Source of the DNA: a virus
Virus record (IMG/VR): IMGVR_UViG_3300045988_144650
Reading direction: 5' to 3' (one strand)
DNA length: 64,000 nucleotides
A model generated the notes under the pieces. That model saw only the letters and a program-made list of their open reading frames with translations. It searched no databases and was not told the DNA's origin. The position numbers were made by a program, and so were the translations under genes. This document shows, piece after piece, positions 8,938 through 30,468 of the stretch. The number at the start of each line of letters is the position of its first letter. The stretch's first letter is position 1.

Positions 8938-10080
8938 TTATCTCCTTTGCAGCTTCTTCACTGAATCTGCGATGACATGAGCTGCCTCGCAAATCTCCTC
9001 GTTCGTTGTAAACACAGAAAATGAAACACGGATTGAACTTCTCGCCTCATCGTCTGACAAACCAATCGCAGTCAACACATGGCTTGGAACTGCAGAATGG
9101 GCAGAACAGGCAGAGCCGGCAGATACAAAAATTCCTTTATTGTTGAGTAGAAGGAGCAAAGTTTCCCCATCCACTCCATCAAAGAAAAGATTGACTGTTT
9201 TTGAACCATCATGGGGGCAACCGTTAATCTGAACCTCACCCAGTTCTTTGGTGAGTTCACTCAAGAAAAGCTTACGCTTGTCTGCATTCTTCTGTTTGCT
9301 TGTAGGATCTTCGAATGCGGCCTCGGCAGCTTCTCCCATGCCGACAATAGACGGAACATTTTCCGTTCCAGACCGAAGCGTCTGCTCCTGACCTCCGCCA
9401 AGAATGATTGGTCGAAGAAGTTCTTTGTGTTTTGCGTATAAAAAACCCACGCCCTTTGGAGCGTGGAACTTATGACCGGAGACTGAAAGAAAATCGATAT
9501 GATCCCTTTCCACATCAATATCCATATTGCCATATGCCTGGACACAATCTGTATGGAAGAAGATGCCATACTTCTTACACTTTGCTCCGATCCTCTGGAT
9601 GTCATAGGAATTTCCCGTTTCATTGTTGACTGCCATCACGGACACAAGACCGGTATTTTTCCTAATCTTCCTGGTGAGTTCGGCAGTATCCAATTCACCG
9701 TCTTTACCCATAGCCAAATACTCGACTTCAAAACCACTATAAAACAGGTATTTCATAGCCTCCAAAACGGAAGGATGCTCTACCGGAGTGGTAATCACAT
9801 GAGTCTTGCCAATGGAAATAAGGTGTTTTGCCAAACCCACGATTGCCAGTGTGTTTGCTTCTGACCCACCAGAAGTGAAGATAATATCTTCTGGGTCAGC
9901 ATTGATTGGCCTTGCACACTGTTCCCTTGCTTTCTGCATTGCTTTTGCCGCATCTGCTCCCATCGTGTGAATACTTCCTGCATTACCATACATTTCTGTG
10001 AAGTACGGAAGCATAGCATTTACCACTCGCTGAGAGACCTGTGTGGTTGCGGCATTATCCAAATAGATCATGGGAACCAC
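8938..10080 (-). CDS. Cysteine desulfurase (NifS/IscS-like class V aminotransferase).
   Basis: N-terminal YLDNAATT, the PLP lysine motif SGHKF and an active-site Cys in SAGSACS. Confidence 0.85.
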   Translation of the reverse strand: MVPMIYLDNAATTQVSQRVVNAMLPYFTEMYGNAGSIHTMGADAAKAMQKAREQCARPINADPEDIIFTSGGSEANTLAIVGLAKHLISIGKTHVITTPVEHPSVLEAMKYLFYSGFEVEYLAMGKDGELDTAELTRKIRKNTGLVSVMAVNNETGNSYDIQRIGAKCKKYGIFFHTDCVQAYGNMDIDVERDHIDFLSVSGHKFHAPKGVGFLYAKHKELLRPIILGGGQEQTLRSGTENVPSIVGMGEAAEAAFEDPTSKQKNADKRKLFLSELTKELGEVQINGCPHDGSKTVNLFFDGVDGETLLLLLNNKGIFVSAGSACSAHSAVPSHVLTAIGLSDDEARSSIRVSFSVFTTNEEICEAAHVIADSVKKLQRR

Positions 10081-10086
10081 CTCCCA

Positions 10087-10575
10087 TCAATGGTTATCGT
10101 TATCGGTGTGCAGCGTTACGCCAGCACCGAAGATAAATTCCTTGATGTCAGTGTCGTACTCACGCAGGAAATCATCCAGAGTGCGATAATCTTCGCGACT
10201 CTGATGGTCAATATAACCATCTGAAGGATCGAGCCAAAGCCCCTTGCAGTTTGCATACTCTGCAACGACCTCATTGATACGGTCAAAATCACGCGTTTCA
10301 ATGAAGTTCTTAATATCCTCTTCGTTGGTTACATCATCATAGCACGACTCGTTACAGCCATTCAGGCAACGAGCCATTGTCAGCAGATAGCTCAATCTGG
10401 TTTCCTGATCGGTGTAGTCCCAGACCTCCCAACCAAACTCGCCAAACTCTGCATGGACATATCCGTCCTCGCTGACATACAAATAATTGGTGGACAACCC
10501 CTTACTATGGTCAACGGTCACAGAATGGGTGCTACTGGAGTTCGTTTCAAAAACTCCTCTGCGAATTTGCTTCAT
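10087..10575 (-). CDS. Member 1 of a three-paralog family with the invariant N-terminus MKQIRRGVFETNSSSTHS. Function unknown.
   Basis: The first 18 aa are near-identical to those of ORFs 25190-25486 and 26868-27380. The remainder diverges. Confidence 0.5.
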   Translation of the reverse strand: MKQIRRGVFETNSSSTHSVTVDHSKGLSTNYLYVSEDGYVHAEFGEFGWEVWDYTDQETRLSYLLTMARCLNGCNESCYDDVTNEEDIKNFIETRDFDRINEVVAEYANCKGLWLDPSDGYIDHQSREDYRTLDDFLREYDTDIKEFIFGAGVTLHTDNDNH

Positions 10576-10829
10576 TACTTTTCAGCCTCCTTTGCATCAA
10601 GCTGTGCGGCAAGATCCAAGGCGCGATACTTCCAGGCATCTGCATCGGTGACTACACAGTCTTCTCCGACTGCCAAGCCAACGATTGCTTCATCCTGGTA
10701 ATGGTTGTCCTTGAAAAACGAAACCCTCAGCTTCATAGGCTCCTGAGTGTCATCGTAGTCTACAACAATGTTGTCGCATCCTGCAGCCTTGTTCGGATCA
10801 ATGGTCAATTCTCCAATTCGTCTGTACAT
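10575..10829 (-). CDS. Hypothetical protein.
   Basis: 84-aa ORF. Confidence 0.35.
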   Translation of the reverse strand: MYRRIGELTIDPNKAAGCDNIVVDYDDTQEPMKLRVSFFKDNHYQDEAIVGLAVGEDCVVTDADAWKYRALDLAAQLDAKEAEK

Positions 10830-11296
10830 TCTTTGTAATACTCCTCTATCGGCATAGATTCATAATATCCGGTGGTCTCACCGTTCTTACCTCTGGGAAC
10901 GCAGTCATCACAGAACGGGCAGATCCAGTCTAAGGTGATACGGGTGGCAGGCTTACCGCAGCGAATACAGGTATAAGCGGAAAGATTTTCGTACTTGGGA
11001 ATAATCTCCCGCAGCATTTTCTCAGTACAGCCGTGGTCATACCATCGTAGAGATCCAAACTTCTCTTTGATCTGAGTAATGCGGTACTTATCAAGATACC
11101 CGATCTTGACCAGTTCCTGCCGGATTTCCTCACACATCTGCTCACCAAAGGCGATACGCCAACCGTCAGGCATAGCGTCGAGTTCTGTGTAGGAATAGTC
11201 GTAATCTTCGGGAACCTTATCCGTCCACCTATTGTGCGGCAGAAGAAACGGATACCTCTCAATGAGTTTCTTGTTCTGTTCCTTTGTCATATCCAT
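10805..11296 (-). CDS. Hypothetical protein with a zinc ribbon.
   Basis: CIRCGKP...CPFCDDC Cys pairs. Confidence 0.4.
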   Translation of the reverse strand: MDMTKEQNKKLIERYPFLLPHNRWTDKVPEDYDYSYTELDAMPDGWRIAFGEQMCEEIRQELVKIGYLDKYRITQIKEKFGSLRWYDHGCTEKMLREIIPKYENLSAYTCIRCGKPATRITLDWICPFCDDCVPRGKNGETTGYYESMPIEEYYKECTDELEN

Positions 11297-11311
11297 CGTT
11301 TATCACCTCCG

Positions 11312-11803
11312 TTAATACAGCGTCCACCAGTAGTCGAAGCATTTTCTATACTGGTTTCCGCGATAGACTTCTTTGCTTCTGCGAACGATCTTGTTGGAGT
11401 AACGCTTCCAATACCTCTGAGCGTTAGAGTTTTTGGGGTATTTGATGTACTTGCCAACAGGCTGCCATTTGCCGTCCACCCAGTCCCAATCTACATACCC
11501 CGCCATAGGGTTGTATCCACAGTGGTTGATGATCCACATCAGATCATCTCTATGTTTGATTGCCATTGCACGGCGGTACTCCATGCCAGTTTTGCGCTTA
11601 CCCTTTTTCCTTTTGCGGGGTTTGCCCACATACGCATCTTCGCAGCAACCGCTGATAAAGAACTCTGTTTGAACCTTATCGCAGCCGCAATATTCAAACT
11701 GGGGATCATAGCCACCTTCTTTAGCGGCACGAAGACGGTGTTCAACACCTTCGCTGATCGGACATTCGTCACAGGCAAAATAACAGTTGCCAACATCGAT
11801 CAT
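11312..11803 (-). CDS. Cys-rich hypothetical protein.
   Basis: Multiple CxxC-like pairs and a basic KRKKGKRK stretch. Confidence 0.4.
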   Translation of the reverse strand: MIDVGNCYFACDECPISEGVEHRLRAAKEGGYDPQFEYCGCDKVQTEFFISGCCEDAYVGKPRKRKKGKRKTGMEYRRAMAIKHRDDLMWIINHCGYNPMAGYVDWDWVDGKWQPVGKYIKYPKNSNAQRYWKRYSNKIVRRSKEVYRGNQYRKCFDYWWTLY

Positions 11804-11824
11804 TGGAGCACCTCCTTTTTGGGT

Positions 11825-12343
11825 TTACACTACGATTCCGGGGTCGTGATCGCAAGCATCTCTGCACGACCATTCTCTTTCGTTGCCAAAACTCATCACA
11901 CACTTGTAATGCTCTGACGCCAGATTATCAATGAGACAGTCGTTGCTCAGAACTGCAGCTTTGCTCGTTCCTCTTTCCTCAAAATATGTATCATCCTGGT
12001 TGGTGAGATAGGAAATAATATCATGTTCCGCTTCATCTCTCGAAAAGCCGAAACCCTTTCCGTAGAACTCACGAAGAGAACTGATGCGCTCCAGAACATA
12101 GGTCGTATTTGCCGTTTCAATGGAAAGAATTTTGCCGCCATCGGATTCACACCAGTCAACAACCGTTGAAGTGTGAAGGCGATGGAATCTTCCCATATCG
12201 TATTCTGGTTCAAACTTGATAAAACCGCGCTGACCCTTTTCAAGGGCAATGATATAACAGCGGCGACCAAGAACATCGTAATGAATTTCTTTCATCACAC
12301 CATCCTTGGGCTTTACCTCTTTGAAAATATAATCGTTACACAT
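11825..12343 (-). CDS. Hypothetical protein.
   Basis: 172-aa ORF. Confidence 0.4.
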   Translation of the reverse strand: MCNDYIFKEVKPKDGVMKEIHYDVLGRRCYIIALEKGQRGFIKFEPEYDMGRFHRLHTSTVVDWCESDGGKILSIETANTTYVLERISSLREFYGKGFGFSRDEAEHDIISYLTNQDDTYFEERGTSKAAVLSNDCLIDNLASEHYKCVMSFGNEREWSCRDACDHDPGIVV

Positions 12344-12355
12344 CTGGGCACCTCC

Positions 12356-12796
12356 TTAGCCGCATCCAACCACATACAGATCATTGTTGATAATCTTCTT
12401 GATCTCCTCTTCGGTCATATCAGTAATCTTCTGCACTGCTTTGATGATACGGTCAATGACCTCCTGCTCACTCTGAGGTTCGTTGCTGGTATGGTGCCAC
12501 GGCATGGAAGGCGGGTAGTAAAAATATGCACCGCCGTCTCCATCGTCACCAAAGGTGAGGGAATCTGTCTCGTCACAATGACACAGGACATCGGCAAGAC
12601 TTTCAAAACCGTTGCCGTAGTAATATTCTTCGATGTCAAAAGAAGAATAGTCATTGGCGGCGATCATATCTGCCAGATCGGACTCCTCAGGGAGCTGTTC
12701 AAGAAAAAACCGAACAGCCTTTTCTTTGTTGATATGCGGCGCCACATCGTCTGCGTTGAGACCAACGCCCTCAATCATCCAATAACTCATGCTCAT
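12356..12796 (-). CDS. Hypothetical acidic protein.
   Basis: 146-aa ORF. Confidence 0.4.
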   Translation of the reverse strand: MSMSYWMIEGVGLNADDVAPHINKEKAVRFFLEQLPEESDLADMIAANDYSSFDIEEYYYGNGFESLADVLCHCDETDSLTFGDDGDGGAYFYYPPSMPWHHTSNEPQSEQEVIDRIIKAVQKITDMTEEEIKKIINNDLYVVGCG

Positions 12797-12811
12797 TTTG
12801 AAAGCCCTCCT

Positions 12812-13414: not shown

Positions 13415-13668
13415 CTACTTCACCTCGCTTATCGTCAAGATGGAAATGCTTTTTGATAATCTCCATCATCTCGTCGTCTTCAATGTAAAAAGGGTCTTCT
13501 GTCAGTACATTCATAATCAACTGGCCGAATCTCCAATCTGGGCACTGGCCTTCCCAGATGTCGGCGAGCTGATTGCAAAACTTACGAATACGCTTAGGAT
13601 CTCTCACGGGGCTACCTCCTCTCAGGTGTAAAAAGCTTTGATATAAACCTATTAAAAGGTGCAAGTTA

Positions 13669-14529
13669 TCACAGCCACCGCTCAACATAGTCGCGGTCTT
13701 GTGTGAAAATCGGAGGCTCCTTGTCGATAATCCATTTGCGTCTGGAAACCGTGATGGTCTTACCGGGATTTTTCGGGTCAGGCATATTGGTTTCCTCAGC
13801 TTGCCTATAGCAGCAAGAACCTCTCTTGCAATCCACGGGGAAATCGTTCCAGTTGATACCATGTACCTGCCACAGCATCTCCTGAATCATGTTTGTGGTC
13901 TTCTTATGAAGCTGATTAGCGCTGAAATACGCTTGTCCAACAGCCTCAATACTGTTCCTGGTGGCATCCTGCTGTCGCCAAATCAAGCAGTTGCAAACTT
14001 CATCTTTGGGAACTGAGAATGCACGAGAATCAAAAAGAGCACCCTTATTCAGCGCCCTCTTCAAAGTTTCTGCGTATTTGTTCAGTTCCTTTTTGATCTC
14101 AGGATCTTCGCCATACATACCACTCAGTACATCTTCCCGATTAAAATAATCATCAATGTTCTGATAGAGCGCCTTGTTAAAAGCCAGGGTTGCCAGCGAT
14201 GCTGAGATGCTGCACATCTTCTGGAGGTTATATCCAAACCACGCATCGGTTGTGATGGTCGCGTAGTCCGTCAAAACCAAAGTGATTTCGTCAGACTGTG
14301 TGTAGCCAAATACACAACCCTGAATATTGGCGCAGAGACTTTGCATGGTCTGTTGCATGGTTTTCATCAAGATAGAATCAAAAGGCTTTTTCATGCCCTT
14401 TGTAAAGGTGTGAAACGCCTTGCCGTCAATGCGGATCACAACTGGGACTCTGCGTGTCAGATAGCTACGAGAAATATTTTCATAGCTCTCTTTCATACGG
14501 TCACCCAAAGAGTCCTTCTTATTGCTCAT
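13669..14529 (-). CDS. Thg1-like protein (tRNA-His guanylyltransferase / 3'-5' polymerase family).
   Basis: VVIRIDGKAFHTFTKGMKKPFD...YTQSDEITLVL matches the Thg1 catalytic core (RIDGRxFHxF...KPxD...QSDEIS). Confidence 0.7.
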   Translation of the reverse strand: MSNKKDSLGDRMKESYENISRSYLTRRVPVVIRIDGKAFHTFTKGMKKPFDSILMKTMQQTMQSLCANIQGCVFGYTQSDEITLVLTDYATITTDAWFGYNLQKMCSISASLATLAFNKALYQNIDDYFNREDVLSGMYGEDPEIKKELNKYAETLKRALNKGALFDSRAFSVPKDEVCNCLIWRQQDATRNSIEAVGQAYFSANQLHKKTTNMIQEMLWQVHGINWNDFPVDCKRGSCCYRQAEETNMPDPKNPGKTITVSRRKWIIDKEPPIFTQDRDYVERWL

Positions 14530-15871
14530 CGCTGCACCATCCTTTCATAATCAAATGTTTAATGATTGCGGGGCGCTCGTTTTCAAGGTTACCACTGATG
14601 ACAGCATCAAGAACCTCGTTTAGAATTCGCCCAACATCTTTACCCTCTTTTACATCGCAGAGGTTCATAATGTCATACCCGTCAATGACCAGATCCTTCA
14701 GCTTAAAACATTGGTTCTGCTCAATGATTTCGCTTGCCATCATGCCAAGAGCGACACATCTGTCAATGCGAGACTCTTGCGTATCTTTTCTGTGAGCCAG
14801 AATATCTGCCATGCGAATATCAAGTAGCCGCATGAACTGCTTTTCACCGACTTTATTGAGCCATCTACGAACTGTTTTGGGGGTAGGCTCAATAACTGCA
14901 TCGTGATACAGCACCAGTTCAAGAATGTCGTCTCGCGATTTGTTATCAAAACGAAGTCTTGTTAGGACTTTTTCTGCAAGGTCATGGCTGAAAACCCCGT
15001 GACCGTAGAAGTGCCCACCATTGTGATCTTCTGTATAACAGCATGGTTTACCAATGTCGTGAAGCAGAAGTGATACATTTACCACCGGATCTGTGGCGTC
15101 GTAGTTTGCAACCGCATGAGCAATATGATCGTAAATCGTAAACTCATGGAATCTGTTGTTCTGGTCAAACCCAATGCAAGGCTTAAGTTCGGGGATAATC
15201 GTTGCCATCACATCGCTATATTCGAGCAGGATATTAAGAATACCCTTGCCGGCCAGCATCTTGCATAGTTCTGACTGGATGCGCTCTGCAGCAATGTTCA
15301 TCAACCTATCTTTGTTTTGGTGGATGGATCTTGCTGTTTCTTCAGCAATAGAAAAACCATAGACAGATGCAAATCGCATTGCTCTGAGGATACGCAGCGC
15401 ATCCTCTCCAAACCTATCGTCTGGATTTCCAACACAAGAAATCATGCCGCGTTCCAAATCTTCTTTGCCACCAAAAGGATCAATCAGGCCATTGTGGTTG
15501 TATGCCATTGCGTTAATGGTGAAGTCTCTGCGAGCCAGATCTTCGACCACATCCGTTACGAATCTTACGGTATCGGGGTGGCGGTTGTCTGAGTATTCAC
15601 CATCCACTCGGAATGTAGTGACCTCATACTGTCCATCGTCCATTACAATGGTTACAGTGCCGTGCTTCAGCCCTGTTTCGATCACACGCTTGTCACAAAA
15701 ACTGTATAGAATTTGTGACGGAGAAGCAGATGTACACACATCCCAATCCTTAGGCTCGACGCCAAGCAGACTGTCTCTTACACAGCCACCAACCACATAT
15801 GCGTCATATCCTGCCTGCTGTAGAGTATGGATAATAACTTGGGCGCCATGAGGAATATTGATATTACTCAT
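14519..15871 (-). CDS. cca: CCA-adding enzyme (class II tRNA nucleotidyltransferase with HD domain).
   Basis: GGCVRDSLLG...DWD head motif, RDFTINAMA, RILRAMRF and a downstream HD motif LLLHDIGK. Confidence 0.85.
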   Translation of the reverse strand: MSNINIPHGAQVIIHTLQQAGYDAYVVGGCVRDSLLGVEPKDWDVCTSASPSQILYSFCDKRVIETGLKHGTVTIVMDDGQYEVTTFRVDGEYSDNRHPDTVRFVTDVVEDLARRDFTINAMAYNHNGLIDPFGGKEDLERGMISCVGNPDDRFGEDALRILRAMRFASVYGFSIAEETARSIHQNKDRLMNIAAERIQSELCKMLAGKGILNILLEYSDVMATIIPELKPCIGFDQNNRFHEFTIYDHIAHAVANYDATDPVVNVSLLLHDIGKPCCYTEDHNGGHFYGHGVFSHDLAEKVLTRLRFDNKSRDDILELVLYHDAVIEPTPKTVRRWLNKVGEKQFMRLLDIRMADILAHRKDTQESRIDRCVALGMMASEIIEQNQCFKLKDLVIDGYDIMNLCDVKEGKDVGRILNEVLDAVISGNLENERPAIIKHLIMKGWCSDEQ

Positions 15872-16886
15872 TGATCGCCCTCCTGTTCACTTCCACCACG
15901 AACTCTTCAACGCGCTTCATATTAGGTGTTACCGGCAGGTCAGTGTTTTCCTTGGCGTACTTCAAACGCTTCTCGTAGTCGTTCACCAAGTCAAAGAATT
16001 CCTGTCTATATGAACCGTCTTCTCTCTGGAATTTGCCATTACGAATACTCAGTAAAAACTCCCGATCTCCGTAACGGTAGGTGTTGATCTCACCCTTTTC
16101 CAGAATGTCAAGGCACATCATGTACAGACGGATCAGGTGCATGGCGTGCTTGTTGAGATGGTTGTCGTCCTTTTTACGATTTCGATGATTCAGCTTTTCA
16201 TAGTTGCCAATGACATTGGAAAGCGTATTTATCATCACGCTGAAATCTCTTGCGGGGAATTTGTCGATGTGAATGTTGCAAAAGACCTCTCGATCCAAAT
16301 CATCGCGTGGACTTTCATCTGTGAACAGGGTAATGCCGCCACTATCCATCACAGAATAGCGGTCTGCAAAAGCCTTGAAAGAACGCTCCATTGCGCTTCG
16401 AATGTGTTCTTCGGTATCCGCCTGACACATTTTGTCTCTTGCCAGAGCATTCTGCAAACGGCGTAGTTGCTGCGTTGCATACCCGCCAAAAGAATTAACT
16501 GCTTTCTGAGAAAGGAAGAGATCGCGGTTGTCAATCATCATCTGTCCAGCGTCAGAGATGTAAAAATAATGCTCTGGCTTGCAGCCGAGCATCTCAATGG
16601 TGTTAGGGTTGCAGTTAAGCAAAAGACCAATCAGTTTATTAAACCCGTAGATCGTGGTATCAGTCTGCGTGTGTACGACCTGCTCAAAATTCGTGAGGCC
16701 GAGGATATCGCTTTTGCTGTTCATCGCACACCCTCGAATATCAACATCTGAGGTTTCGATGTTCGTGCCGTAGGCGTAACTACCGCCCAGCGTCAGAAAC
16801 ATGATGCGACCTTTGAGATGTGGGTTGGTTCGCAGAAAATCATATTCTTCGCTTGCCATCATCTCTTTGATTTGTTCAATCGTCAT
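15864..16886 (-). CDS. Pol-beta superfamily nucleotidyltransferase, RNA-repair-associated type.
   Basis: GGSYAYGTNIETSDVDIRG is the GS...D.D nucleotidyltransferase signature. The gene is co-operonic with the CCA enzyme and the Thg1-like gene. Confidence 0.55.
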   Translation of the reverse strand: MTIEQIKEMMASEEYDFLRTNPHLKGRIMFLTLGGSYAYGTNIETSDVDIRGCAMNSKSDILGLTNFEQVVHTQTDTTIYGFNKLIGLLLNCNPNTIEMLGCKPEHYFYISDAGQMMIDNRDLFLSQKAVNSFGGYATQQLRRLQNALARDKMCQADTEEHIRSAMERSFKAFADRYSVMDSGGITLFTDESPRDDLDREVFCNIHIDKFPARDFSVMINTLSNVIGNYEKLNHRNRKKDDNHLNKHAMHLIRLYMMCLDILEKGEINTYRYGDREFLLSIRNGKFQREDGSYRQEFFDLVNDYEKRLKYAKENTDLPVTPNMKRVEEFVVEVNRRAINE

Positions 16887-17422
16887 ACGCTCCTCCTTCC
16901 TTGGTATGTTTCGTATAATGCTCTCTGCGGCGCATACTCACCAAAGAGTTCAATCTCTTTTGAGAGCCTTGCCTTGACAGCATCTTCTTTGAATTTGTAT
17001 CTCCCTATGTAAACGCGCTTGCCGTTGTATGAGATATTAGCAAGCCACATTCCGCGTTCCTTATCGTAGAAAACGCCCGTCACGCCGGAAGTGTTGGTGG
17101 AATAAAGACCACGGTTGCGGTCGTTCTCTGTAAACGCACAGCGTCTCAGATTGCGCTTGCGGTTATCTTTTCTATTCTTGTCGATATGGTCAACTATCTC
17201 TCCGGGCTTAGCGTGCATCACAATCCTGTGGAATCTGGAGACCTGATATCGACCGAAATAGTAATAGCCGCATACGAGGTATCCATCCTTATCGGGATAC
17301 CAGTTGCGGCTTTGGATCATATGTAGATCTTCAAGATCAAACAGATATTCAGATGCCCCAATGTGAAGAATGCCATGAGTTGGAAGAAGCTCAATTCGCT
17401 TCTGGGCGGCTTTCATCTCCAC
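16883..17422 (-). CDS. HNH homing endonuclease with an AP2 DNA-binding domain.
   Basis: HNH motif in HRIVMHAKPGEIVDHIDKNRKDNRKRNLR. AP2-like segment SGVTGVFYDKERGMWLANISYNGKRVYIGRYKFKEDA. Confidence 0.7.
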   Translation of the reverse strand: MEMKAAQKRIELLPTHGILHIGASEYLFDLEDLHMIQSRNWYPDKDGYLVCGYYYFGRYQVSRFHRIVMHAKPGEIVDHIDKNRKDNRKRNLRRCAFTENDRNRGLYSTNTSGVTGVFYDKERGMWLANISYNGKRVYIGRYKFKEDAVKARLSKEIELFGEYAPQRALYETYQGRRSV

Positions 17423-17926: not shown

Positions 17927-17950
17927 GGTTAATCCACCTCAATATTGACA

Positions 17951-18535: not shown

Positions 18536-18553
18536 AGGGCACCCTCCTATCTT

Positions 18554-19334: not shown

Positions 19335-19763
19335 TTATCTCAGGTTTTCAGGCTCCAAAGGCATGGTATCGCCAGAAGCAACGCAATCTACAATAAGATC
19401 TACAAACTCACTGTCCTCACAAAACTGGAGACGCGTAATCAGTTCTCTTGCATGAGCTGCAAGAAACTGCTTTTCCTGGATTGTCATATTGCTTTCACTC
19501 CTTTGATTCGTATTTCTTAAATGATGGTAATAAGCTACATGACCACAGTCAGGACAGACAATCTGATATACCCCAAGTTCCTTAACCTTTGGAAAGTACA
19601 GTGTGTATCCACACGGACAGAAGACTGCATCATACCCATCTTTTACAAGTATGGAATGCTCCATTACAATGTCCTCAACATCTACTCTGTATTCTCTAAT
19701 GGAATCAACACCTCTGAACCATTTCAAAACCGGAATCTCTTCTTGGATTGGTTTAGGGAACAT
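19335..19763 (-). CDS. Hypothetical protein.
   Basis: 142-aa ORF with a CPDCG motif. Confidence 0.4.
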   Translation of the reverse strand: MFPKPIQEEIPVLKWFRGVDSIREYRVDVEDIVMEHSILVKDGYDAVFCPCGYTLYFPKVKELGVYQIVCPDCGHVAYYHHLRNTNQRSESNMTIQEKQFLAAHARELITRLQFCEDSEFVDLIVDCVASGDTMPLEPENLR

Positions 19764-20070
19764 CCGAACACCCCTTTACTGTTACAAGTTCTCTTGTGTT
19801 ATCCAGCCATACCCCGCCATTGAAAAACGATGGACGATAAACTTCCATACCTTCTTCTATTTTCAAGAACACATCTGGGTTTTTCTTGAAGTAGTCAATC
19901 GCAGCCTCTTCGTTTGGAAAGTCCATAGGGAATTCATAGTAAAAGAATCTCTGATTGGTGGCAAACCAACTGTCCGAGTCTGGACAGAAAGCTAAGATGT
20001 ATGTTGGAAACTCTGTGTTAAATGTAATACCATCTATATTTGGGAGGGGCTCATAGACCGCATTCTTCAT
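19753..20070 (-). CDS. Hypothetical protein.
   Basis: 105-aa ORF. Confidence 0.35.
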   Translation of the reverse strand: MKNAVYEPLPNIDGITFNTEFPTYILAFCPDSDSWFATNQRFFYYEFPMDFPNEEAAIDYFKKNPDVFLKIEEGMEVYRPSFFNGGVWLDNTRELVTVKGCSDVP

Positions 20071-20416: not shown

Positions 20417-20453
20417 CAGGCACCTCCTTTATGCTATTGATTGCACAAATTTA

Positions 20454-21912: not shown

Positions 21913-21943
21913 CCTTACACCTCCGCATATGTAAAAAGTCGAG

Positions 21944-22000
21944 AGATAAAAAAGACCCGAACAGATCATGTAGTGAATGGAACTCATGTTGTTCGGGTCT
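21944..22000 (-). terminator. Rho-independent terminator (minus strand).
   Basis: AGACCCGAACA...TGTTCGGGTCT stem followed by TTTTTTAT on the minus strand. Confidence 0.45.
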
Positions 22001-23111: not shown

Positions 23112-23113
23112 CT

Positions 23114-23431: not shown

Positions 23432-23445
23432 TCAAAGCCCTCCAA

Positions 23446-24242: not shown

Positions 24243-24244
24243 TC

Positions 24245-25183
24245 TTACTCCTCCTTTGCCTTTAAGAATTGGAACATCTCCGTGATGTTGTTGGTGACGG
24301 GGAAACGCTCTGTGCTACAAGAGTTTCTTGCAAATTGGCCGGAAACTGCATCCACATACATAGAAGCAGAACTCAACTCGCCCTCTCTGCCATCGTCTCC
24401 CATATAGAAAATCTTCCACTCTTCTTCAGACATCAGTCGCTTGACATCAAGCTGAGAAATCGCCAGATTGTCAAAACTTATGGTCTTGAACCAACCGTTT
24501 TTGATAATCTGCGGAAGATATTCATACATATCATGCATTTTGTTGTCGACGATCTGACCAACCTTCATATGGTGGTCAGCGCCGCGTCGGAAATCCTTAT
24601 ATCCAAGGATCAGGATCTTCAGCTCACGGTTGCGTTCCGAAAGCCAAGACACCTGTTCCATACTAACAATGCCGTTGATGATGTGAATAACAGCATTGGG
24701 AAACTTGGAAACTTCATCCGCAAAACGGTAAGTGCTTTCGCGATCTCCGCCGGTATAAGAAATTCCCAAGCCATAAATAAACCCTTGCTCCATCAGTTCG
24801 AGAAGCAAGGGAATGTTTTTCAGAAAATGAACTTCGTTGACCGTCACATTTGCTATCAGCTTGCGCTTCTTCAGCAAATGCAGAAACGGGATAAAATCTG
24901 GGTGCGAGAGCGGGTTGCCGCCGCCAATCGCCAGTTCCGTAAACTCGTGGAGAGAGTCAAGAAACGGCAGGTTGAGGATATCACCGTGCTTGCCATCCGG
25001 CCTGGAATCCTCATGGCACATAGGACAACCCTTATCGCAAGCGTTGGTGATTTTGATATCCATCGACTCAGGGAACTCGGCATCAAAGAAGTCCAGATCG
25101 TTTTCTCGGATCTTGGTGCCGTCGGAGAGTATCGTCACGCTATAGTTTCCATTTTGATATTGACCCAAGATACTCATACACAA
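24245..25183 (-). CDS. Radical SAM enzyme, small, with no SPASM domain.
   Basis: CDKGCPMC is a Cx3Cx2C cluster. GGGNP glycine-rich SAM motif present. Confidence 0.7.
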   Translation of the reverse strand: MCMSILGQYQNGNYSVTILSDGTKIRENDLDFFDAEFPESMDIKITNACDKGCPMCHEDSRPDGKHGDILNLPFLDSLHEFTELAIGGGNPLSHPDFIPFLHLLKKRKLIANVTVNEVHFLKNIPLLLELMEQGFIYGLGISYTGGDRESTYRFADEVSKFPNAVIHIINGIVSMEQVSWLSERNRELKILILGYKDFRRGADHHMKVGQIVDNKMHDMYEYLPQIIKNGWFKTISFDNLAISQLDVKRLMSEEEWKIFYMGDDGREGELSSASMYVDAVSGQFARNSCSTERFPVTNNITEMFQFLKAKEE

Positions 25184-25189
25184 CCTCCC

Positions 25190-25486
25190 TTAACCGTCTC
25201 TTCCGTAGGTGCCAAAGGCAACCATCTTATCACCACTCGGCGTAGTAAAGCGATGGGAATAAACATCAAGTGAGTACCATCTGTTATCGCCGAGATTTTC
25301 GTAGGTGCAATACTGACCGTCTTCACCCTCAGTGAGGATAGAGGATTTCGGAACCAGCTTTTCGCCCCAACTGTCATACATCAGCTCACCGCGCTTAAAC
25401 TTCTCATACTCGTCTTCGGTGCAAATGGTAATGCTATGAGTGGAGCTGCTGTTCGTTTCGAACACGCTGCGTCGAACTTGCTTCAT
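25190..25486 (-). CDS. Member 2 of the conserved-N-terminus paralog family (MKQVRRSVFETNSSSTHS).
   Basis: Shares the 18-aa N-terminus with the other two paralogs. It lies 7 bp upstream of the radical SAM gene and 6 bp downstream of RtcB. Confidence 0.5.
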   Translation of the reverse strand: MKQVRRSVFETNSSSTHSITICTEDEYEKFKRGELMYDSWGEKLVPKSSILTEGEDGQYCTYENLGDNRWYSLDVYSHRFTTPSGDKMVAFGTYGRDG

Positions 25487-25491
25487 TTTCT

Positions 25492-26700
25492 CTACCTCTC
25501 TTCTTCGCCGGCTTTGAAATTATAGATCGGCTTAATAACCGAAATAATCTTTGCCGTCGGCTCAATATTGTCGACAATGTCTTCCATATTCTTGTATGCC
25601 ATAGGGCACTCATCAAGAGTGCTTTGACCTACAGATGTCGTATAAATTCCACTCATCTGCTTTTTGAACTCAGAAACTGTAAATGTCTGCTTTGCCGCAC
25701 TTCTGCTCATCAATCGACCTGCTCCATGAGGTGCAGAATAGTTCCAATCTTCATTACCCTTACCAATACAGATTAGACTTCCATCTCTCATGTTGATCGG
25801 GATCAGAAGTTTTTCTTCGTTCTGTGCAGAAACAGCTCCCTTTCGCAGAATCATATTATCCAAATCAATATAGTTATGAATTGTTGTAAATTGTTCAACA
25901 ACATGGAACCCCATGTTCTTTACAATAATATCCATCATAGCTTGCCTATTTAATTCGGCAAACTGCTGTGCAATTTGCATATCGTGCAAATATTGCTCGA
26001 ACAACTCACCCTCTACATAGGCTAATGCTTTAGGGATGGATGACTGCTTAGTCTTCATCTGTTTCAAAACGGTTTGAATTTCCTTTTGGCGACCGTCTTT
26101 TTTTAATCTCTGGACAACCTCATCAATTTCATCTTTACTGTATGAGGTTAATGATTTATAAGCAGCATCCTGATAATAATTAGCTATTTCCAACCCAAGA
26201 TGTCTGCTTCCAGAATGGACGACAATATAAATATTTCCATCATCGTCTTTATTTGCTTCAATAAAATGATTACCACCACCGAGTGTTCCGATGCTGTTAT
26301 AGGCGCGATCGGTATTAACTTTGTCTGCACAAAACAGTTTTGACAAATCGATACGATCAGAAAACTTATGTGGTCTCTTATGAATTTCAAACCCAGATGG
26401 AATACTTGATCGAATTACCTTGTCCAACTTTTGTGGTTCAATATGTGTCTCTTTCAGCCGGATGGTTTCCATTCCGCATCCAATATCAACCCCTACAAGA
26501 TTGGGGCATATCTTGTCCTTGATAGTCATTGTGGTTCCAATTGTACACCCTGCACCAGCATGAATGTCGGGCATCATTCGAACTCTGCTTCCCTCCATAT
26601 AGGGTTGATTCAGCAAATTTATCACCTGAGAGATAGATTCGTTGTCGACCACATCAGTAAATACTTTTGCAATGCCGTATTTTCCGCTCAACTCAAACAT
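25492..26700 (-). CDS. rtcB: RtcB-family RNA ligase (3'-phosphate/5'-OH).
   Basis: DIHAGAGCTIG, GGGNHF and HGAGR motifs. Confidence 0.85.
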   Translation of the reverse strand: MFELSGKYGIAKVFTDVVDNESISQVINLLNQPYMEGSRVRMMPDIHAGAGCTIGTTMTIKDKICPNLVGVDIGCGMETIRLKETHIEPQKLDKVIRSSIPSGFEIHKRPHKFSDRIDLSKLFCADKVNTDRAYNSIGTLGGGNHFIEANKDDDGNIYIVVHSGSRHLGLEIANYYQDAAYKSLTSYSKDEIDEVVQRLKKDGRQKEIQTVLKQMKTKQSSIPKALAYVEGELFEQYLHDMQIAQQFAELNRQAMMDIIVKNMGFHVVEQFTTIHNYIDLDNMILRKGAVSAQNEEKLLIPINMRDGSLICIGKGNEDWNYSAPHGAGRLMSRSAAKQTFTVSEFKKQMSGIYTTSVGQSTLDECPMAYKNMEDIVDNIEPTAKIISVIKPIYNFKAGEEER

Positions 26701-26852
26701 TATTGTGAATCGCCCCTCTTTCTGTAAGAATCTTTTTGCCTATTGCGATCATATGCCTTTTTATTCGGGACTGACTGTGTTACAGGGCGAGCGCAAGTCC
26801 AGAAGTTCCGAAACTTTTTAGCATACTCTTTCTTCTGATTTTTCTCAGTCAT
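26697..26852 (-). CDS. Small basic protein (about 51 aa), not in the ORF track.
   Basis: ATG after GGAGG reads MTEKNQKKEYAKKFRNFW... and its stop overlaps the RtcB start. Confidence 0.3.
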
Positions 26853-26867
26853 GTGCTCGCCTCCATT

Positions 26868-27380
26868 TTAATTTCCTTTGTAATACTCTTCGTGAGGATA
26901 AAGTGCATGGATATCTACATCCATATCACTATTATCGTTTCCGGTGAGTACAAAACTGTCTTCAGAGAAGAGATATCGCAAAAGGCGCCCCTTGTTACTT
27001 GTGGTCTTGTCCACAAACCTTTGGTGGTCATCTTCGCCGCAGTGGTCTACGCTTGCATTCACCACATAAGAACTGCTTCCGTATTTGTGGTACACCGCTT
27101 CGTCGAACTCGCACTCGACACCAATACTATCAAGCGTTTCCATAATAAACGCCATGACATCTTGTGCTTTTTCTCTGCTGTAAAGACTCAGAAAACTGGC
27201 GTAAAGATATGCTGCCTTTTCTTCAGGGGTGTCAAGTCGATCAAAACCCCAACCAAAATCTTCACAACGGAAGACGAGTTTGTCAGGGTAAGAAAGTTCT
27301 GTGTTGCGATTAGTTGCAATACAGATACTGTGGGTACTGCTGGAGTTTGTTTCAAAAACACCGCGCCGTTCCTGTCTCAT
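26868..27380 (-). CDS. Member 3 of the conserved-N-terminus paralog family (MRQERRGVFETNSSSTHS).
   Basis: The likely start is the internal ATG preceded by AGGAGA, which makes the conserved motif the exact N-terminus. Confidence 0.5.
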   Translation of the reverse strand: MRQERRGVFETNSSSTHSICIATNRNTELSYPDKLVFRCEDFGWGFDRLDTPEEKAAYLYASFLSLYSREKAQDVMAFIMETLDSIGVECEFDEAVYHKYGSSSYVVNASVDHCGEDDHQRFVDKTTSNKGRLLRYLFSEDSFVLTGNDNSDMDVDIHALYPHEEYYKGN

Positions 27381-27453
27381 CGGGTTTCTCCTCTCGTTCG
27401 TATTTGAAAAGAATTCGTAATCCATTATAGATCTCTTTAGTGTTGAAGAGAGA

Positions 27454-27609
27454 TTATAATGCAGAAGAACACACGAAGTGATCTCCGCACGATCCTTTAG
27501 GATCGAAGCAGATCACGAGTGTGAAAAGTAACAAAACCTTACTTCGATTTACAATACGAAGCGACTGCCTCTATGTATGATTGTGTATGGCAGACCATGT
27601 GCATTATAA
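27454..27609 (-). ncRNA. Family-1 structured element, short copy D.
   Basis: Terminal inverted repeats TTATAATGCA and TGCATTATAA flank SL1 (CTGCC/GGCAG) and the conserved SL2 CTTCG-ATTTACAATA-CGAAG. Confidence 0.4.
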
Positions 27610-27707
27610 ATTCTTTTCGGTTGTTTATCGTTCGCAACCTGAATAAAGTGCTTTTGGATCTATAGAGATAAATTCCTGGAAAACCCCGTTTTCCTGGAAT
27701 TTAGCGC

Positions 27708-27815
27708 TATTGATACAAAACATCTTTATTTACAACGGGGTATGGGGTTTACCCCAGATAAGCTTCTCAAACCTTTACTTCGATTTACAATACGAAGCCA
27801 CCCTATGTATCAAAG
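27708..27815 (-). ncRNA. Family-1 structured element, short copy E.
   Basis: a1-like CTTTGATAC and a2-like GTATCAA with the conserved SL2 CTTCG-ATTTACAATA-CGAAG. Confidence 0.35.
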
Positions 27816-27848
27816 AAATGGGTAAATGTTCGTTGCAAACGCAAAATA

Positions 27849-28443
27849 TTACTCGTGGAAGTGGAACATAACCTCTTCCATTTTGCCAGGTCTTAAGGCC
27901 GAAACATAAATCTTATCGAAAGCCCATGTTCCAACCTCGGGATCGTCTCCCCGGTAATCGCCACCGCCCTGACCGTTGCCGATACTGGTGAGCAGAGGCA
28001 GAGGATTGATACACCAACCCTCTTTGTCTTTGTTTTCTGCCACATACTTTTCCATGTCGATGTAGCAATTTCTTGTGATGTTCACAATGAAGCAATCCGC
28101 CTCATCATTGGAAAGCTTGTACTGCGGCAGCTTTCTGTCAATCGGCGTGATAACCTCTTTTCCATCACTCCAGAGAGTATTGTAGAGCCGCATGAAATCC
28201 TTGCGGTCTGTGATAAAAGCATCGCTGAAGCAACACTCATCATCAACTACGCTGTCAGCATAATCGCCGACCCACGCCAGTCGCTGAGGAGTGCCGTCAA
28301 GGTTCTGAAGAACTGCGTTAACAAAATCATTTCCAACCCAAGAATGTTCCATGAGCTTCAGACCGTTGCCGTAATCGTGAGAATAGGCAGTCTGTTTGGT
28401 CCCGTCATCTGCAATCAAGAGTGGCTTGTAATACTGACCCATA
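27849..28443 (-). CDS. Hypothetical protein with a Gly-rich GNGQGGGDY motif.
   Basis: The real start is probably ATG at 28443 after GAGGAAGAAAGG. The track start at 28532 lies inside tRNA-Leu. Confidence 0.45.
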
Positions 28444-28482
28444 GTGAAACCTACCTTTCTTCCTCGCTTTTGAAAATCGTAA

Positions 28483-28569
28483 TGGTACGGATAGTGGGAC
28501 TTGAACCCACACATCATTGCTGACATTAGCACCTGAAGCTAACGCGTCTGCCAATTCCGCCATATCCGC
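28483..28569 (-). tRNA. tRNA-Leu (anticodon CAG), type II, CCA encoded.
   Basis: Manual fold: acceptor GCGGATA, anticodon loop TTCAGGT, long variable arm, T-arm GTGGG-TTCAAGT-CCCAC, 3' ACCA. Confidence 0.7.
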
Positions 28570-28742
28570 ATATTTCTTTGGTCGGCTTCCCGCTTAGATT
28601 GTCACATCGTCTACTTGGGAGTAAAGGTCTCGTTCGCAAACAACCGTGTATACCCGATTGCTCCGCAGTTTTCAGCGGACATTTTCATTCTCTGTGTGGT
28701 AAGCCGATAATCGCACACATCATCTGGGAGCTACCCAGCCAC

Positions 28743-28833
28743 TGGCGGAGCAGATAGGACTTGAACCTACACACCCTTTCGGGCTACTCACGGTTTAGCA
28801 AACCGCTGCCTTACCAATTAGGCTTACTGCTCC
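28743..28833 (-). tRNA. tRNA-Ser (anticodon GCU), type II.
   Basis: Acceptor GGAGCAG, anticodon loop TTGCTAA, long variable arm, T-loop TTCAAGT, 3' GCCA. Confidence 0.7.
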
Positions 28834-28837
28834 ATAT

Positions 28838-28913
28838 TGGAGCTGGTGGACGGATTCGAACCCCCGACCTACTGATTACAAATCAGTTGCTCTACCGACT
28901 GAGCTACACCAGC
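28838..28913 (-). tRNA. tRNA-Thr (anticodon UGU).
   Basis: Canonical D-arm AGCTCAGTCGGTAGAGC, anticodon loop TTTGTAA, T-arm GGGGG-TTCGAAT-CCGTC, 3' TCCA. Confidence 0.8.
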
Positions 28914-29527
28914 ATCTCTTTATAGGGTTTTTCGCGCTTCTGCAGATTTCCACGCCTTGTCCTTACCGTCTATCCCTATTGCCACATGGGATCACAGACC
29001 CTAAACACTTCTGCTCTATGCCGGTTGTGTTCTGATACCGGAAAACATTCTGGGGACTTTATTTCACCTTGTTGCTCCAGCCCTCAAGGGTAACTCGGCA
29101 AGTGGCTTGCCTATTTGGATTTTGGTGCCATCATCTCAGCCATACACTCCGGCCTAAACCTAAGTTTGCCAGAACCTCACCGATTGCTCCTATGTATGCC
29201 GTCCTCGCCTCTGACTGAAATGATGTGCCGACACCTTCCATACCGTCTCACTTGCAAAATAAAACAAACTACGAACGGGGTGTGGTAAGCACATACCACC
29301 CAAACCTCTGCTTAGTCCCGCCGGTTCTGGTTTACGACATGGTTTGGTGCTCATGCCCTTGAGCTATTAGGCTATTTAACTATCTCTCACCGGCTTGATT
29401 TGCTTTTGTTAAGACGGTGCCAGAGCACGCTGCTCATATCCCGTTATCTTCCGCCCATCGTAGTCGATGACCCAGCCACTATATATCATTTCAAGTGGGC
29501 TTTTCCCATACCGTCTAAAGCGTATGG

Positions 29528-29637
29528 CTGGTGGAGAGGGATGGATTCGAACCACCGAAGCTTAATTGACCACACGGCGCCACAAGTCAAAAAGCGGAGA
29601 TTTACAGTCCCCGACTTTGGCCACTTGTCTACCTCTC
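29528..29637 (-). tRNA. tRNA-Tyr-like (anticodon GUA), atypically long at 110 nt with a ~39-nt variable arm.
   Basis: Acceptor GGAGAGG/CCTCTCC, anticodon stem-loop GGGGA-CTGTAAA-TCTCC, T-arm GGTGG-TTCGAAT-CCATC, 3' ACCA. The variable region GCTTTTTGACTTGTGGCGCCGTGTGGTCAATTAAGCTTC forms an extended hairpin. Confidence 0.55.
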
Positions 29638-29655
29638 CATATTGGTAAACTGGTC

Positions 29656-30468
29656 TTATTCCCAGTTTGTCGTAACACGACCATCTGGATGAATAATAAT
29701 ATTGGAATACCCATCCTGATAATCATTATGTTGCTGTTGCCACATATCTCCGAGTGTTACCCTGGCGTGCTTGCCAGCATAATCAAAAGTTGCATACACA
29801 AAGAAGTCGCCAATACGAAATGTGTGAAGATCAACTTCGTGATCGTTTTGTAATTCATTCCAAATATCTACCGAGTAGTCTTTTCGTTCAAGGCCACTAA
29901 GAAACCGAAAAGAAAAGGCATCTGCATCCATCTTCATGTAATCTTTAATGAATGCCAATGTTGGGGTTTCAACCACTGTTTGGACTGTACACCCAGGAAA
30001 CTTACTTGGATTTGGATGAATAAACTCGTTACAGGACAGATTGATATGTGCCAAACCATTTAATTCTGTGCTGAAACCAGAAGTATTTATTGAGCAAAAG
30101 ACACCGTTGCTGTAACTCTGATATGTTTCAACGATTTTTGCAATGTGTTTTGGATATAGACCGGGTTCTCCGCCAGTGATAGTAAGCCTTCCATTCGGAT
30201 GTTCTTTTAACACACGCTTTAGCGCCTCAACCTGGAGCGGAAAATTATTGTTGCCGGACATTGGGTGCTGCCTTTCCAAGCAAAACGGACAGCTAAACGG
30301 ACATTCCTGTGTGGTAATCAGTTGGATATTGATTCGATAGTAAAGAGGCCGACCAAGTGATGTTTTGATTAACCTGTCTCTTAGCCTATATTGCAGATCA
30401 TTATTCATTTCATTCCTTATTTCGTCGTAAGAACCAATGAACGGAATGAAGTTCAACTTGCTACTCAT
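29656..30468 (-). CDS. Radical SAM enzyme, second copy, small.
   Basis: CPFSCPFC is a Cx3Cx2C cluster. ITGGEPGLYP SAM-binding motif present. Confidence 0.7.
   Translation of the reverse strand: MSSKLNFIPFIGSYDEIRNEMNNDLQYRLRDRLIKTSLGRPLYYRINIQLITTQECPFSCPFCLERQHPMSGNNNFPLQVEALKRVLKEHPNGRLTITGGEPGLYPKHIAKIVETYQSYSNGVFCSINTSGFSTELNGLAHINLSCNEFIHPNPSKFPGCTVQTVVETPTLAFIKDYMKMDADAFSFRFLSGLERKDYSVDIWNELQNDHEVDLHTFRIGDFFVYATFDYAGKHARVTLGDMWQQQHNDYQDGYSNIIIHPDGRVTTNWE

Follow-up and report, generated by a model that had tools for sequence, protein, structure and literature searches.

Repair of transfer RNA (tRNA) is a classic counter of phages to anticodon nucleases and other tRNA-targeting defences, and the known parts of this repair ligate, heal ends and add nucleotides. 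Described RNA-repair islands comprise Pnkp/Rnl1 of T4, RtcB, RlaP with an RNA ligase, and Thg1-like and CCA-adding enzymes, as surveyed for jumbo phages (PMC7824862). The split of IscS sulfur between iron-sulfur (Fe-S) assembly and 2-thiouridine (s2U) thiolation of tRNA alters the yield of lambda (PMC3296357), and the modified wobble nucleotide is what nucleases of the RloC type cut out (PMC2610378), so that a repaired tRNA would need to be re-modified. In this study we analysed IMG/VR virus record IMGVR_UViG_3300045988_144650, a stretch of 64,000 nucleotides (hereafter the window). A reading made from its sequence alone (the sequence-only reading) had singled out a cysteine desulfurase gene and two genes for radical S-adenosylmethionine (SAM) proteins, here called rSAM1 and rSAM2. 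The window and its relatives carry the operon toolkit of the described islands, namely Thg1-like, CCA-adding, RlaP and RtcB proteins, an RNA ligase of family PF09414, an AAA_33 kinase with an HD domain and a metallophosphoesterase. Our analysis suggests that the desulfurase belongs to such an island, that rSAM1 forms a conserved cassette with a partner family, FETNSSS, that travels in these islands, and that rSAM2 stands apart from both. The features on which the argument rests are the following, all given in positions of the window.

8938-10071, minus strand: type-I (NifS/IscS-like) cysteine desulfurase, 377 amino acids (aa), from PF00266, the NifS/DndA/IscS hidden Markov models (HMMs) and its motifs
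10087-10575, minus strand: FETNSSS-family protein, 162 aa, from its translation and phrog_28997
24245-25177, minus strand: rSAM1, single-cluster radical SAM protein, 310 aa, from CX3CX2C and phrog_16999
25190-25486, minus strand: B-type FETNSSS protein, 98 aa, from its translation
25492-26700, minus strand: RtcB-family RNA ligase, with a FETNSSS gene of the cassette on either side, from PF01139 (223.7 bits)
26868-27380, minus strand: A-type FETNSSS protein of 170 aa, counted from Met16 of its open reading frame (ORF), from its translation and phrog_28997 at 2e-22
29656-30468, minus strand: rSAM2, orphan single-cluster radical SAM protein with a MoaA/viperin-like core, 270 aa, from CPFSCPFC and ITGGEP

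Three samples of 80 IMG/VR loci each were collected: around homologs of rSAM1 (49-99% identity), with which each ORF of the window was compared, around the closest viral relatives of the desulfurase (44-99% identity), and around rSAM2. Neighbourhood counts refer to presence within 10 kb of the centre gene. Among the rSAM1 loci, homologs of the 98-aa B-type protein were present in 75, of the 170-aa A-type protein in 63 and of the 162-aa protein in 22. De novo clustering yielded a single FETNSSS family with 187 members in 76 of these loci, with one to six paralogs in each, and the linkage to rSAM1 was found in 24 of 26 rSAM1 lineages at 70% identity. As a control, a homology search detected the family in none of the rSAM2-centred loci, and its motif occurred in 7 of the desulfurase-centred loci. 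The typical cassette has the order A-type (~190 aa), B-type (~100-200 aa) and rSAM1, with gaps of ~10-20 nt. In the window 12 nt separate the stop codon of the B-type gene from the rSAM1 start that follows it, and RtcB stands between the two FETNSSS genes; as RtcB was found in only 2 of the 80 rSAM1 loci, we consider it a lineage-specific insertion.

The three FETNSSS paralogs of the window, which are absent from the sequence-only reading, tie rSAM1, RtcB and the desulfurase together: one is located directly upstream of each of these genes, and all three start with M-x-Q-x-R-R-G/S-V-F-E-T-N-S-S-S-T-H-S. The paralog upstream of the desulfurase (N-terminus MKQIRRGVFETNSSSTHS, C-terminus ...HTDNDNH) has its stop codon 15 nt before the desulfurase start and gave no Pfam or NCBIfam match. 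Across the family the N-terminal motif "VFETNSSS-x-HS" is invariant, the invariant positions being F9, E10, N12, S13-15, H17, Y58 and D149, and a VDH motif is recurrent, not invariant. The motifs led us to consider a divergent metallophosphoesterase, Toprim, SGNH or DHH domain, for which we make no case here. The C-termini are conserved as well, with TGNDN…Y(Y/F)KGN in the A-type (…TGNDN…EEYYKGN in the window) and TTPSG-x3-VAFG-x-YGYDG in the B-type that adjoins rSAM1 (TTPSGDKMVAFGTYGRDG in the window). None of the 1,527 homologs of ~170 aa had a source annotation, and the family had no match in Pfam, NCBIfam or PADLOC; its profile did not match PDB sequences either (best E 0.13, to a designed protein).

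The same pairing was seen in named phages. In the Prevotella megaphage Lak-A1, rSAM1 is followed by five FETNSSS paralogs, and in the Microcystis phages Ma-LMM01, which has one paralog only, and MaMV-DC an A-type paralog lies just upstream of rSAM1. The pairing thus spans phages of Bacillota, Bacteroidota and Cyanobacteria. What carried the vague label 'Fe-S oxidoreductase' in Ma-LMM01, RM378 and others, in Ma-LMM01 and MaMV-DC on the rSAM1 homologs themselves, can now be described as a defined cassette of one radical SAM gene with one to six, usually two, FETNSSS genes. We also observed that a 266-aa protein annotated 'histidyl tRNA synthetase' is encoded directly upstream of the FETNSSS-rSAM1 pair in the Microcystis phages (locus L257 6058-6858, which is Ma-LMM01 gp131; locus L001 2775-3575, which is MaMV-DC ORF129L). 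It had no Pfam match and may be another tRNA-related neighbour of the cassette.

The ORF of rSAM1 extends over 24245-25183(-), and the real start is the ATG at 25177, which gives the 310 aa also found in homologs. The protein carries the cluster motif CDKGCPMC (CX3CX2C) and GGGN as a variant of the SAM-binding GGE motif. With 23.9 bits it remained just under the gathering score of Pfam Radical_SAM (PF04055, 29.5), although homologs are flagged PF04055, and it matched phrog_16999 at 1e-43. Its AlphaFold2 (AF2) model, with a predicted local distance difference test (pLDDT) of 89.7, matched radical SAM structures with probability 1.00; these were generic fold matches only, the nearest in Foldseek being SuiB, EpeE, DesII and BlsE at a template modelling (TM) score of ~0.5 and 13-15% identity. 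No NCBIfam model scored above 21 bits, and the family profile gave a best E of 1e-3 against PDB and E = 0.07 against QueE. The family is unannotated and very large, with over 7,300 clusters (90% identity) of proteins that all have ~300 aa. Homologs in named phages occur in Lak megaphages (43% identity) and in Ma-LMM01 and MaMV-DC (39%), and more distant ones in RM378, phiYS40 and a Salmonella phage. A role as glycyl-radical activase, suggested by CxxxCxxCHE and the small neighbouring protein, was rejected: no RVxG-type glycine motif was found, and the presence of the cassette in phages of oxygenic cyanobacteria also disfavours it.

In the family alignments of both rSAM1 and rSAM2 the CX3CX2C triad supplies the sole invariant cysteines. 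This bears out the description of both as non-SPASM proteins, since no SPASM, twitch or other auxiliary cluster is left room for, and it follows that neither inserts sulfur in the manner of MiaB, LipA or BioB. In line with this, Pfam and NCBIfam gave no UPF0004 or TRAM matches, which are features of MiaB/RimO, and no extra conserved cysteines were seen in either protein. The HMM classification proposed in the sequence-only reading placed neither protein with QueE, viperin, MoaA, NrdG/PflA or the methylthiotransferases. PADLOC, PHROGs, Pfam and NCBIfam named no specific family for either of them, and both fell below every specific family threshold, so that the ordinary explanation as NrdG-type activases does not apply. 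Moreover, the two are not a pair of paralogs: BLASTP aligned only the cluster/GGE stretch of rSAM1 and rSAM2 (E = 7e-4), and distant relatives of rSAM2 gave no match to rSAM1.

What rSAM1 acts on can be read in two ways. In the first, rSAM1 and the FETNSSS proteins would work jointly on an RNA substrate, by means of the 5'-deoxyadenosyl radical of rSAM1. In the second, rSAM1 would mature the FETNSSS proteins at their N-terminal E-x-N-S-S-S-x-H motif, for example at an invariant serine, and the modified proteins would be the effectors. The second reading follows the analogy of anaerobic sulfatase-maturating enzymes (anSME) or other radical SAM enzymes that modify proteins and peptides, and we regard it as possible, if rather doubtful; it is a sub-hypothesis compatible with a role in RNA repair. 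A maturase and its substrate would explain the very tight operonic coupling, the several paralogs per rSAM1 gene, and a family in which the N-terminal motif stays invariant while the remainder diverges into subfamilies with their own conserved A-type and B-type C-termini. The fold and HMM neighbours of rSAM1 also include, besides SuiB and EpeE, the His-Xaa-Ser maturase HxsC and a tungsten-cofactor oxidoreductase maturase. However, these fold matches are generic, and rSAM1 has neither SPASM/twitch cysteines nor a recognisable recognition element for ribosomally synthesised and post-translationally modified peptides (RiPPs). The single paralog of Ma-LMM01 also counts against this reading, and the further invariant residues Y58 and D149 together with VDH give the FETNSSS proteins an enzyme-like appearance, in which the N-terminal motif could be an active site.

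The desulfurase ORF spans 8938-10080(-), and public gene calls start at the ATG at 10071; the exact 377-aa product was found on public contigs. It scored 281 bits against Pfam Aminotran_5 (PF00266, gathering score 21.5), and solved IscS/NFS1 structures matched it at 1e-84. In NCBIfam it reached 405 bits for NifS (cut-off 531), 373 for DndA (480) and 349 for IscS (643); as all three equivalog cut-offs were missed, we treat it as a member of the family and not as an assignable ortholog. The motif SVSGHKF (SGHK) aligned with the pyridoxal phosphate (PLP) lysine of NFS1 and the loop SAGSACS with the catalytic-cysteine loop SSGSACT, and both K201 and C322 were invariant in 9 diverse phage homologs. 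The gene is therefore intact and is predicted to encode an active type-I cysteine desulfurase, which agrees with the identity given in the sequence-only reading. The C-terminus is ~24 residues shorter than that of E. coli IscS, and the missing tail contributes to IscU binding in IscS. The genes next to it that matter here are:

8521-8934, minus strand: acidic protein, 137 aa, after a 3-nt gap downstream of the desulfurase, from phrog_6306 at 3e-28
13669-14529, minus strand: Thg1-like 3'-5' nucleotidyltransferase (tRNA 5'-end repair), from PF04446 (101.8 bits)
14519-15871, minus strand: CCA-adding tRNA nucleotidyltransferase with HD domain, from PolyA_pol (128 bits)
15864-16886, minus strand: RlaP, an RNA-ligase-associated Pol-beta nucleotidyltransferase, from PF10127 (56.9 bits)

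Thg1, the CCA-adding enzyme and RlaP are located 3.6-6.8 kb from the desulfurase of the window, and the CCA-adding enzyme exceeded the equivalog cut-off of NCBIfam NF009814 (293.5 bits, cut-off 290). Of the 80 desulfurase-centred loci, 46 hold Thg1, 48 the CCA-adding enzyme and 49 RlaP. The commonest order was Thg1, two small ORFs, a 196-aa calcineurin-type metallophosphoesterase, the desulfurase, RlaP and the CCA-adding enzyme, and the metallophosphoesterase-desulfurase pair is kept in most lineages. In most relatives the metallophosphoesterase occupies the slot that is held in the window by the 162-aa FETNSSS protein. Homologs of the 137-aa acidic protein, for which Pfam gave no match, were present in 11 of the 80 loci. 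An HNH-AP2 homing-endonuclease-like gene, 16883-17422(-), lies directly upstream of RlaP, giving the transcription order HNH-AP2, RlaP, CCA-adding enzyme and Thg1; in some related phages a similar HNH/AP2 segment lies inside the kinase-HD gene (for example L032 6940-8382).

The rSAM1 loci connect the two groups of genes. In other phage lineages two super-operons recur. One has the order desulfurase, dCMP-deaminase-like, HD, RlaP, kinase (AAA_33) with HD, FETNSSS, FETNSSS, rSAM1 and Thg1. The second reads deaminase, desulfurase, RNA ligase (PF09414), kinase with HD, FETNSSS, FETNSSS and rSAM1, and in locus L051 the order is simply desulfurase, FETNSSS and rSAM1. The identities of the neighbours in the super-operons were borne out by Pfam. 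In total, the desulfurase was present in 27-28 of the 80 rSAM1 loci, and 26 of 28 of these held at least one recognised RNA-repair gene; Thg1 was found in 21 of the 80.

The three genes are genuine. All the data taken together suggest that they form two or three separate units, and to the following joint reading we give a little less than an even chance. The desulfurase would work in a phage island for tRNA repair and maturation, together with the Thg1-like and CCA-adding enzymes, RlaP, RtcB and the tRNAs of the phage. It would raise the supply of persulfide sulfur from which host thiouridylases could thiolate repaired or phage tRNAs (s2U34, or 4-thiouridine at position 8, s4U8), with [4Fe-4S] assembly for rSAM1 as a possible secondary benefit. 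rSAM1 would be the catalytic part of the cassette of A-type FETNSSS, B-type FETNSSS and rSAM1, and by acting either on RNA or on the FETNSSS proteins it would carry out one of the steps by which damaged RNA of the host or the phage is restored. rSAM2 would be an independent orphan accessory gene, expressed from within the tRNA array, with possibly a nucleotide as substrate. A role related to RNA or tRNA, which had been suggested earlier, is made plausible by the conserved gene context. A bolder form of this reading, in which rSAM1 and FETNSSS are a previously unrecognised, widespread phage system for radical-based repair or re-modification of damaged tRNA or other RNA, with the desulfurase supplying sulfur, seems to us fairly unlikely; such a system may, for instance, restore a modified nucleotide after damage by an anticodon nuclease.

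Several observations weigh against the joint reading. Its functional side is inferred from gene context. At 60% identity the desulfurase loci fall into 18 lineages, of which only 8 show Thg1, RlaP or the CCA-adding enzyme within 10 kb, and the loci all come from one broad group of temperate phages with the same CI-MazF-integrase module, so that the counts above are inflated by shared ancestry. A recognisable RNA-repair gene was found in only 37 of the 80 rSAM1 loci. Pfam scans of the window, which covered the minus-strand ORFs of more than 250 aa and left out some plus-strand ORFs of this size at 55-64 kb, showed no thiouridylase (MnmA, ThiI or a TtcA-type PP-loop ATPase) and no sulfur-relay protein, which is why the thiolation step is assigned to the host. 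With a median pI of 4.7, the acidic FETNSSS proteins give no hint that they bind RNA directly. Finally, the desulfurase and rSAM2 occur together, tens of kb apart, on at least 15 IMG/VR contigs. Such co-carriage is expected within one phage lineage and by itself shows no functional link; a genome-level Fe-S link between the two genes is nonetheless conceivable.

These contigs lead to the explanation that had been put first in the sequence-only reading, namely that the desulfurase provides sulfur for the [4Fe-4S] clusters of the phage radical SAM enzymes during infection. The presence of all three genes in the window agrees with it, and so do the rSAM1 loci with a desulfurase, which in L051 directly adjoins the cassette. 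Seen from the desulfurase, the association is not kept: rSAM1 and rSAM2 each occurred in 1 of its 80 loci, against 46-49 for the repair genes, and its immediate neighbours are the metallophosphoesterase, RlaP, the CCA-adding enzyme and Thg1. Moreover, 52 of the 80 rSAM1 loci have no desulfurase within reach, ~50 rSAM2 phages of ~55-60 kb have none near rSAM2, the window showed no gene for an IscU, NifU or SufU scaffold, and the enzyme ends short of the E. coli IscS tail. For these reasons a dedicated Fe-S supply is not the best-supported role and appears unlikely to us; the context of the desulfurase fits tRNA repair and re-thiolation better.

A single unit of all three genes is likewise contradicted by rSAM2, as neither rSAM1 nor the desulfurase nor FETNSSS was found within 10 kb in its 80 loci. 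In the window rSAM2 lies, as had been noticed, between tRNA genes:

28483-28569, minus strand: tRNA-Leu(CAG), from ARAGORN/Rfam
28743-28833, minus strand: tRNA-Ser(GCU), from ARAGORN/Rfam
28838-28913, minus strand: tRNA-Thr(UGU), from ARAGORN/Rfam
29532-29638, minus strand: tRNA-like gene of 107 nt, from Rfam (38 bits), missed by ARAGORN
30494-30569, minus strand: tRNA-Ala(UGC), from ARAGORN/Rfam

The tRNA-Ala gene upstream ends 25 nt before the rSAM2 start, with the strong Shine-Dalgarno sequence AAAGGAGG in between, and the tRNA-like gene downstream starts 17 nt past the rSAM2 stop. In the close relatives L004 and L005 the tRNAs start ~1.5 kb downstream of rSAM2, which shows that the adjacency is regional and not strict. 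Read by eye, the tRNA-like gene has the anticodon GUA (Tyr) and a very long variable region of ~35 nt. The array also includes long non-coding stretches (28914-29531 and 28570-28742). Within the longer one, ~28919-29115 is 78-93% identical to non-coding DNA of otherwise different phage loci (L087-L095, L012, L051) and ~29121-29504 is 85% identical in L091, L093 and L096; for this stretch of 618 nt Rfam gave no match, and its folding z-score was 0. Immediately beyond the tRNA-Ala/rSAM2 region we noted a 497-aa protein with SPFH/Band-7 and flotillin domains, 31227-32720(-), and beside it a YscD-like BON domain protein (30684-31193).

rSAM2 passed the gathering score of Pfam Radical_SAM (34.7 bits, cut-off 29.5), and its AF2 model (pLDDT 92.2) matched radical SAM structures with probability 1.00. 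We found 353 homologs, mostly more than 70% identical. A set of 1.84 billion proteins held only 84 representatives, of which few were complete, and the gene occurred in 9 of 185,579 species genomes; INPHARED did not contain it. Homologs occur on contigs of Lachnospira intestinalis, Clostridium porci and metagenome-assembled genomes (MAGs) of Lachnospiraceae/Eubacteriales; in L. intestinalis CLA-AA-H89B and C. porci WCA-389 they lie on prophages. We describe rSAM2 as a compact orphan radical SAM family restricted to phages of Lachnospiraceae. About 27 of its loci come from phages related to that of the window, with which they have a ThiF cluster and a reverse transcriptase in common. In contigs of ~55-60 kb the gene lies among replication and recombination genes (SSB, RecT, metallo-beta-lactamase-fold, SbcC-like), and a GIY-YIG-like gene is found upstream of it in 46 of 72 loci; no partner is conserved.

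The closest relatives of rSAM2 raise the question of whether it makes or destroys a modified nucleoside triphosphate, as viperin or MoaA-like enzymes might in prophage defence or counter-defence. Its best specific models were prokaryotic viperin (31 bits in NCBIfam, with a cut-off of 180, over residues 50-133 only; 31.5 bits for PADLOC pVip, whose models scored 31 and 14 bits, over the N-terminal cluster region only) and MoaA. With the family profile, MoaA was matched at 5.8e-12 along most of the barrel, viperin-like enzymes at ~1e-8, and MoaA and viperins were also the top Foldseek matches; the gene stands alone in accessory or early regions that vary, as would suit such a role. The individual scores are far under the cut-offs, with moaA at 25 bits (284), PflA at 24.5 (232), NrdG2 at 22.5 (131) and QueE at 18.9 (260), and HxsC also ranks among the best NCBIfam matches. 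An assignment to MoaA itself was rejected on its moaA score and because the C-terminal cysteines for the second, GTP-binding [4Fe-4S] cluster are not conserved. As the viperin matches are confined to the cluster/SAM region, the second MoaA cluster is missing and no kinase or other partner gene is conserved, we hold a role on nucleoside triphosphates to be quite unlikely.

Two further uses of the sulfur had been suggested, of which the first involves an E1-like gene; it is listed here together with the lysogeny genes of the window.

3601-6494: lysogeny module of a tyrosine integrase whose N-terminus is MrpR-like, a MazF/PemK toxin and, divergently transcribed, a CI-like repressor with helix-turn-helix (HTH) and S24 peptidase
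38481-39158, minus strand: ThiF-family E1-like protein, 225 aa, from PF00899 (93.6 bits)
49815-50633: second integrase

The E1-like gene at 38481 is real, and its top NCBIfam model was ThiF (77.5 bits, cut-off 159, residues 18-88 only), with TcdA at 45.8 bits, so that the desulfurase might feed a ThiS/MoaD-like carrier activated by this protein. We consider this very improbable: only the N-terminal Rossmann part is matched, equally by ThiF, Cap2-type E1-E2 and 6A-MBL models and below their cut-offs, the gene is 28 kb from the desulfurase, and ThiF was near the desulfurase in none of the 80 loci. The protein showed no rhodanese domain; the analysis included no systematic screen of small ORFs for a carrier like ThiS. 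Its 300-aa neighbour (39180-40082) is weakly JAB-like, and the genes for a 505-aa protein, the 300-aa protein and ThiF (38481-41559, minus strand) are kept as a unit in L004 and L005. Judged from these similarities, the cluster may resemble a ubiquitin-like conjugation/deconjugation module more than a sulfur-carrier activator. The least probable explanation, with hardly any chance in our view, is that the desulfurase is a DndA/SspA equivalent for phosphorothioation of phage DNA: the PADLOC DndA and SspA profiles did match over full length (441 bits), as they do any IscS-like desulfurase, the DndA equivalog cut-off mentioned above was not reached, no DndB-E or SspB-D partner was among the ten proteins tested with PADLOC or in the ThiF neighbours of 505 and 300 aa, and the conserved neighbours of the desulfurase are RNA-repair genes.

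Beside this cluster a reverse transcriptase (RVT_1, 71 bits) adjoins a DUF6273 protein, 36076-38456(-), with the look of a diversity-generating retroelement (DGR). No obvious template/variable repeat pair was found near it, only a direct repeat of 44 nt (35076-35119, 37493-37536).

The window as a whole has minus-strand genes to ~50 kb and plus-strand genes beyond, and it includes two tyrosine integrases, a CI-like repressor, a MazF toxin, a terminase, the reverse transcriptase and seven tRNA-type genes. The desulfurase gene, identical and with the same neighbours, is also present on a 385-kb metagenomic scaffold. Based on the integrase and repressor genes, this scaffold copy and the rSAM2 homologs in Lachnospiraceae/Eubacteriales, the window is the sequence of a temperate phage or prophage of gut Clostridia. 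Most relatives keep the lysogeny module on the downstream side of the desulfurase. When the region was compared with INPHARED at the nucleotide level, no related phage was retrieved, only fragments of ~50-100 nt. Such stretches of 50-100 nt, at 19540-19638 and 19915-19969, are 82-96% identical to unrelated phage records, and one of them matches under the annotated tRNA-Thr of phage C48C1, at a place where no tRNA was called in the window; they may be tRNA fragments or attachment-site relics within ORFs.

In comparison with the described repair islands, what is new here is the association with them of a widespread, unannotated rSAM1-FETNSSS cassette and of a desulfurase, in islands that are themselves of a known kind. 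The words 'radical SAM' and 'desulfurase' have zero occurrences in the jumbo-phage survey (PMC7824862), and the islands of the window carry both. A literature search combining RlaP, RtcB and radical SAM gave no match, and another returned no paper with the 'ETNSSS' motif, the rSAM1 cassette or a desulfurase in phage tRNA repair. A desulfurase within repair operons, and beside them a radical SAM protein with a dedicated partner family of thousands of unannotated sequences, hint at unstudied steps of RNA repair, such as the re-installing of thio- or other modifications or the chemical reversal of RNA damage. If this is true, radical chemistry and sulfur trafficking would join ligation, end-healing and nucleotide addition among the known RNA-repair functions.

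The individual proteins can be set beside characterised enzymes in the same way. The phage desulfurase is like IscS/NifS over its full length, in its PLP lysine and in its catalytic loop, and it differs in its sub-equivalog scores, its shorter C-terminus and its phage origin. In Bacillus, dedicated desulfurases are paired with thiolation enzymes as YrvO-MnmA and NifZ-ThiI. With SuiB, EpeE/YydG, anSME, DesII and BlsE, rSAM1 shares a partial TIM barrel, the CX3CX2C motif and, in its GGGN, a GGE-like motif; unlike these enzymes it has no SPASM/twitch domain and has its own N-terminal beta-hairpin, a conserved C-terminal region and, in FETNSSS, an obligatory partner family that is not known from other systems. 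For rSAM2 the closest neighbours in both profile and fold are MoaA and viperin, which act on nucleoside triphosphates.

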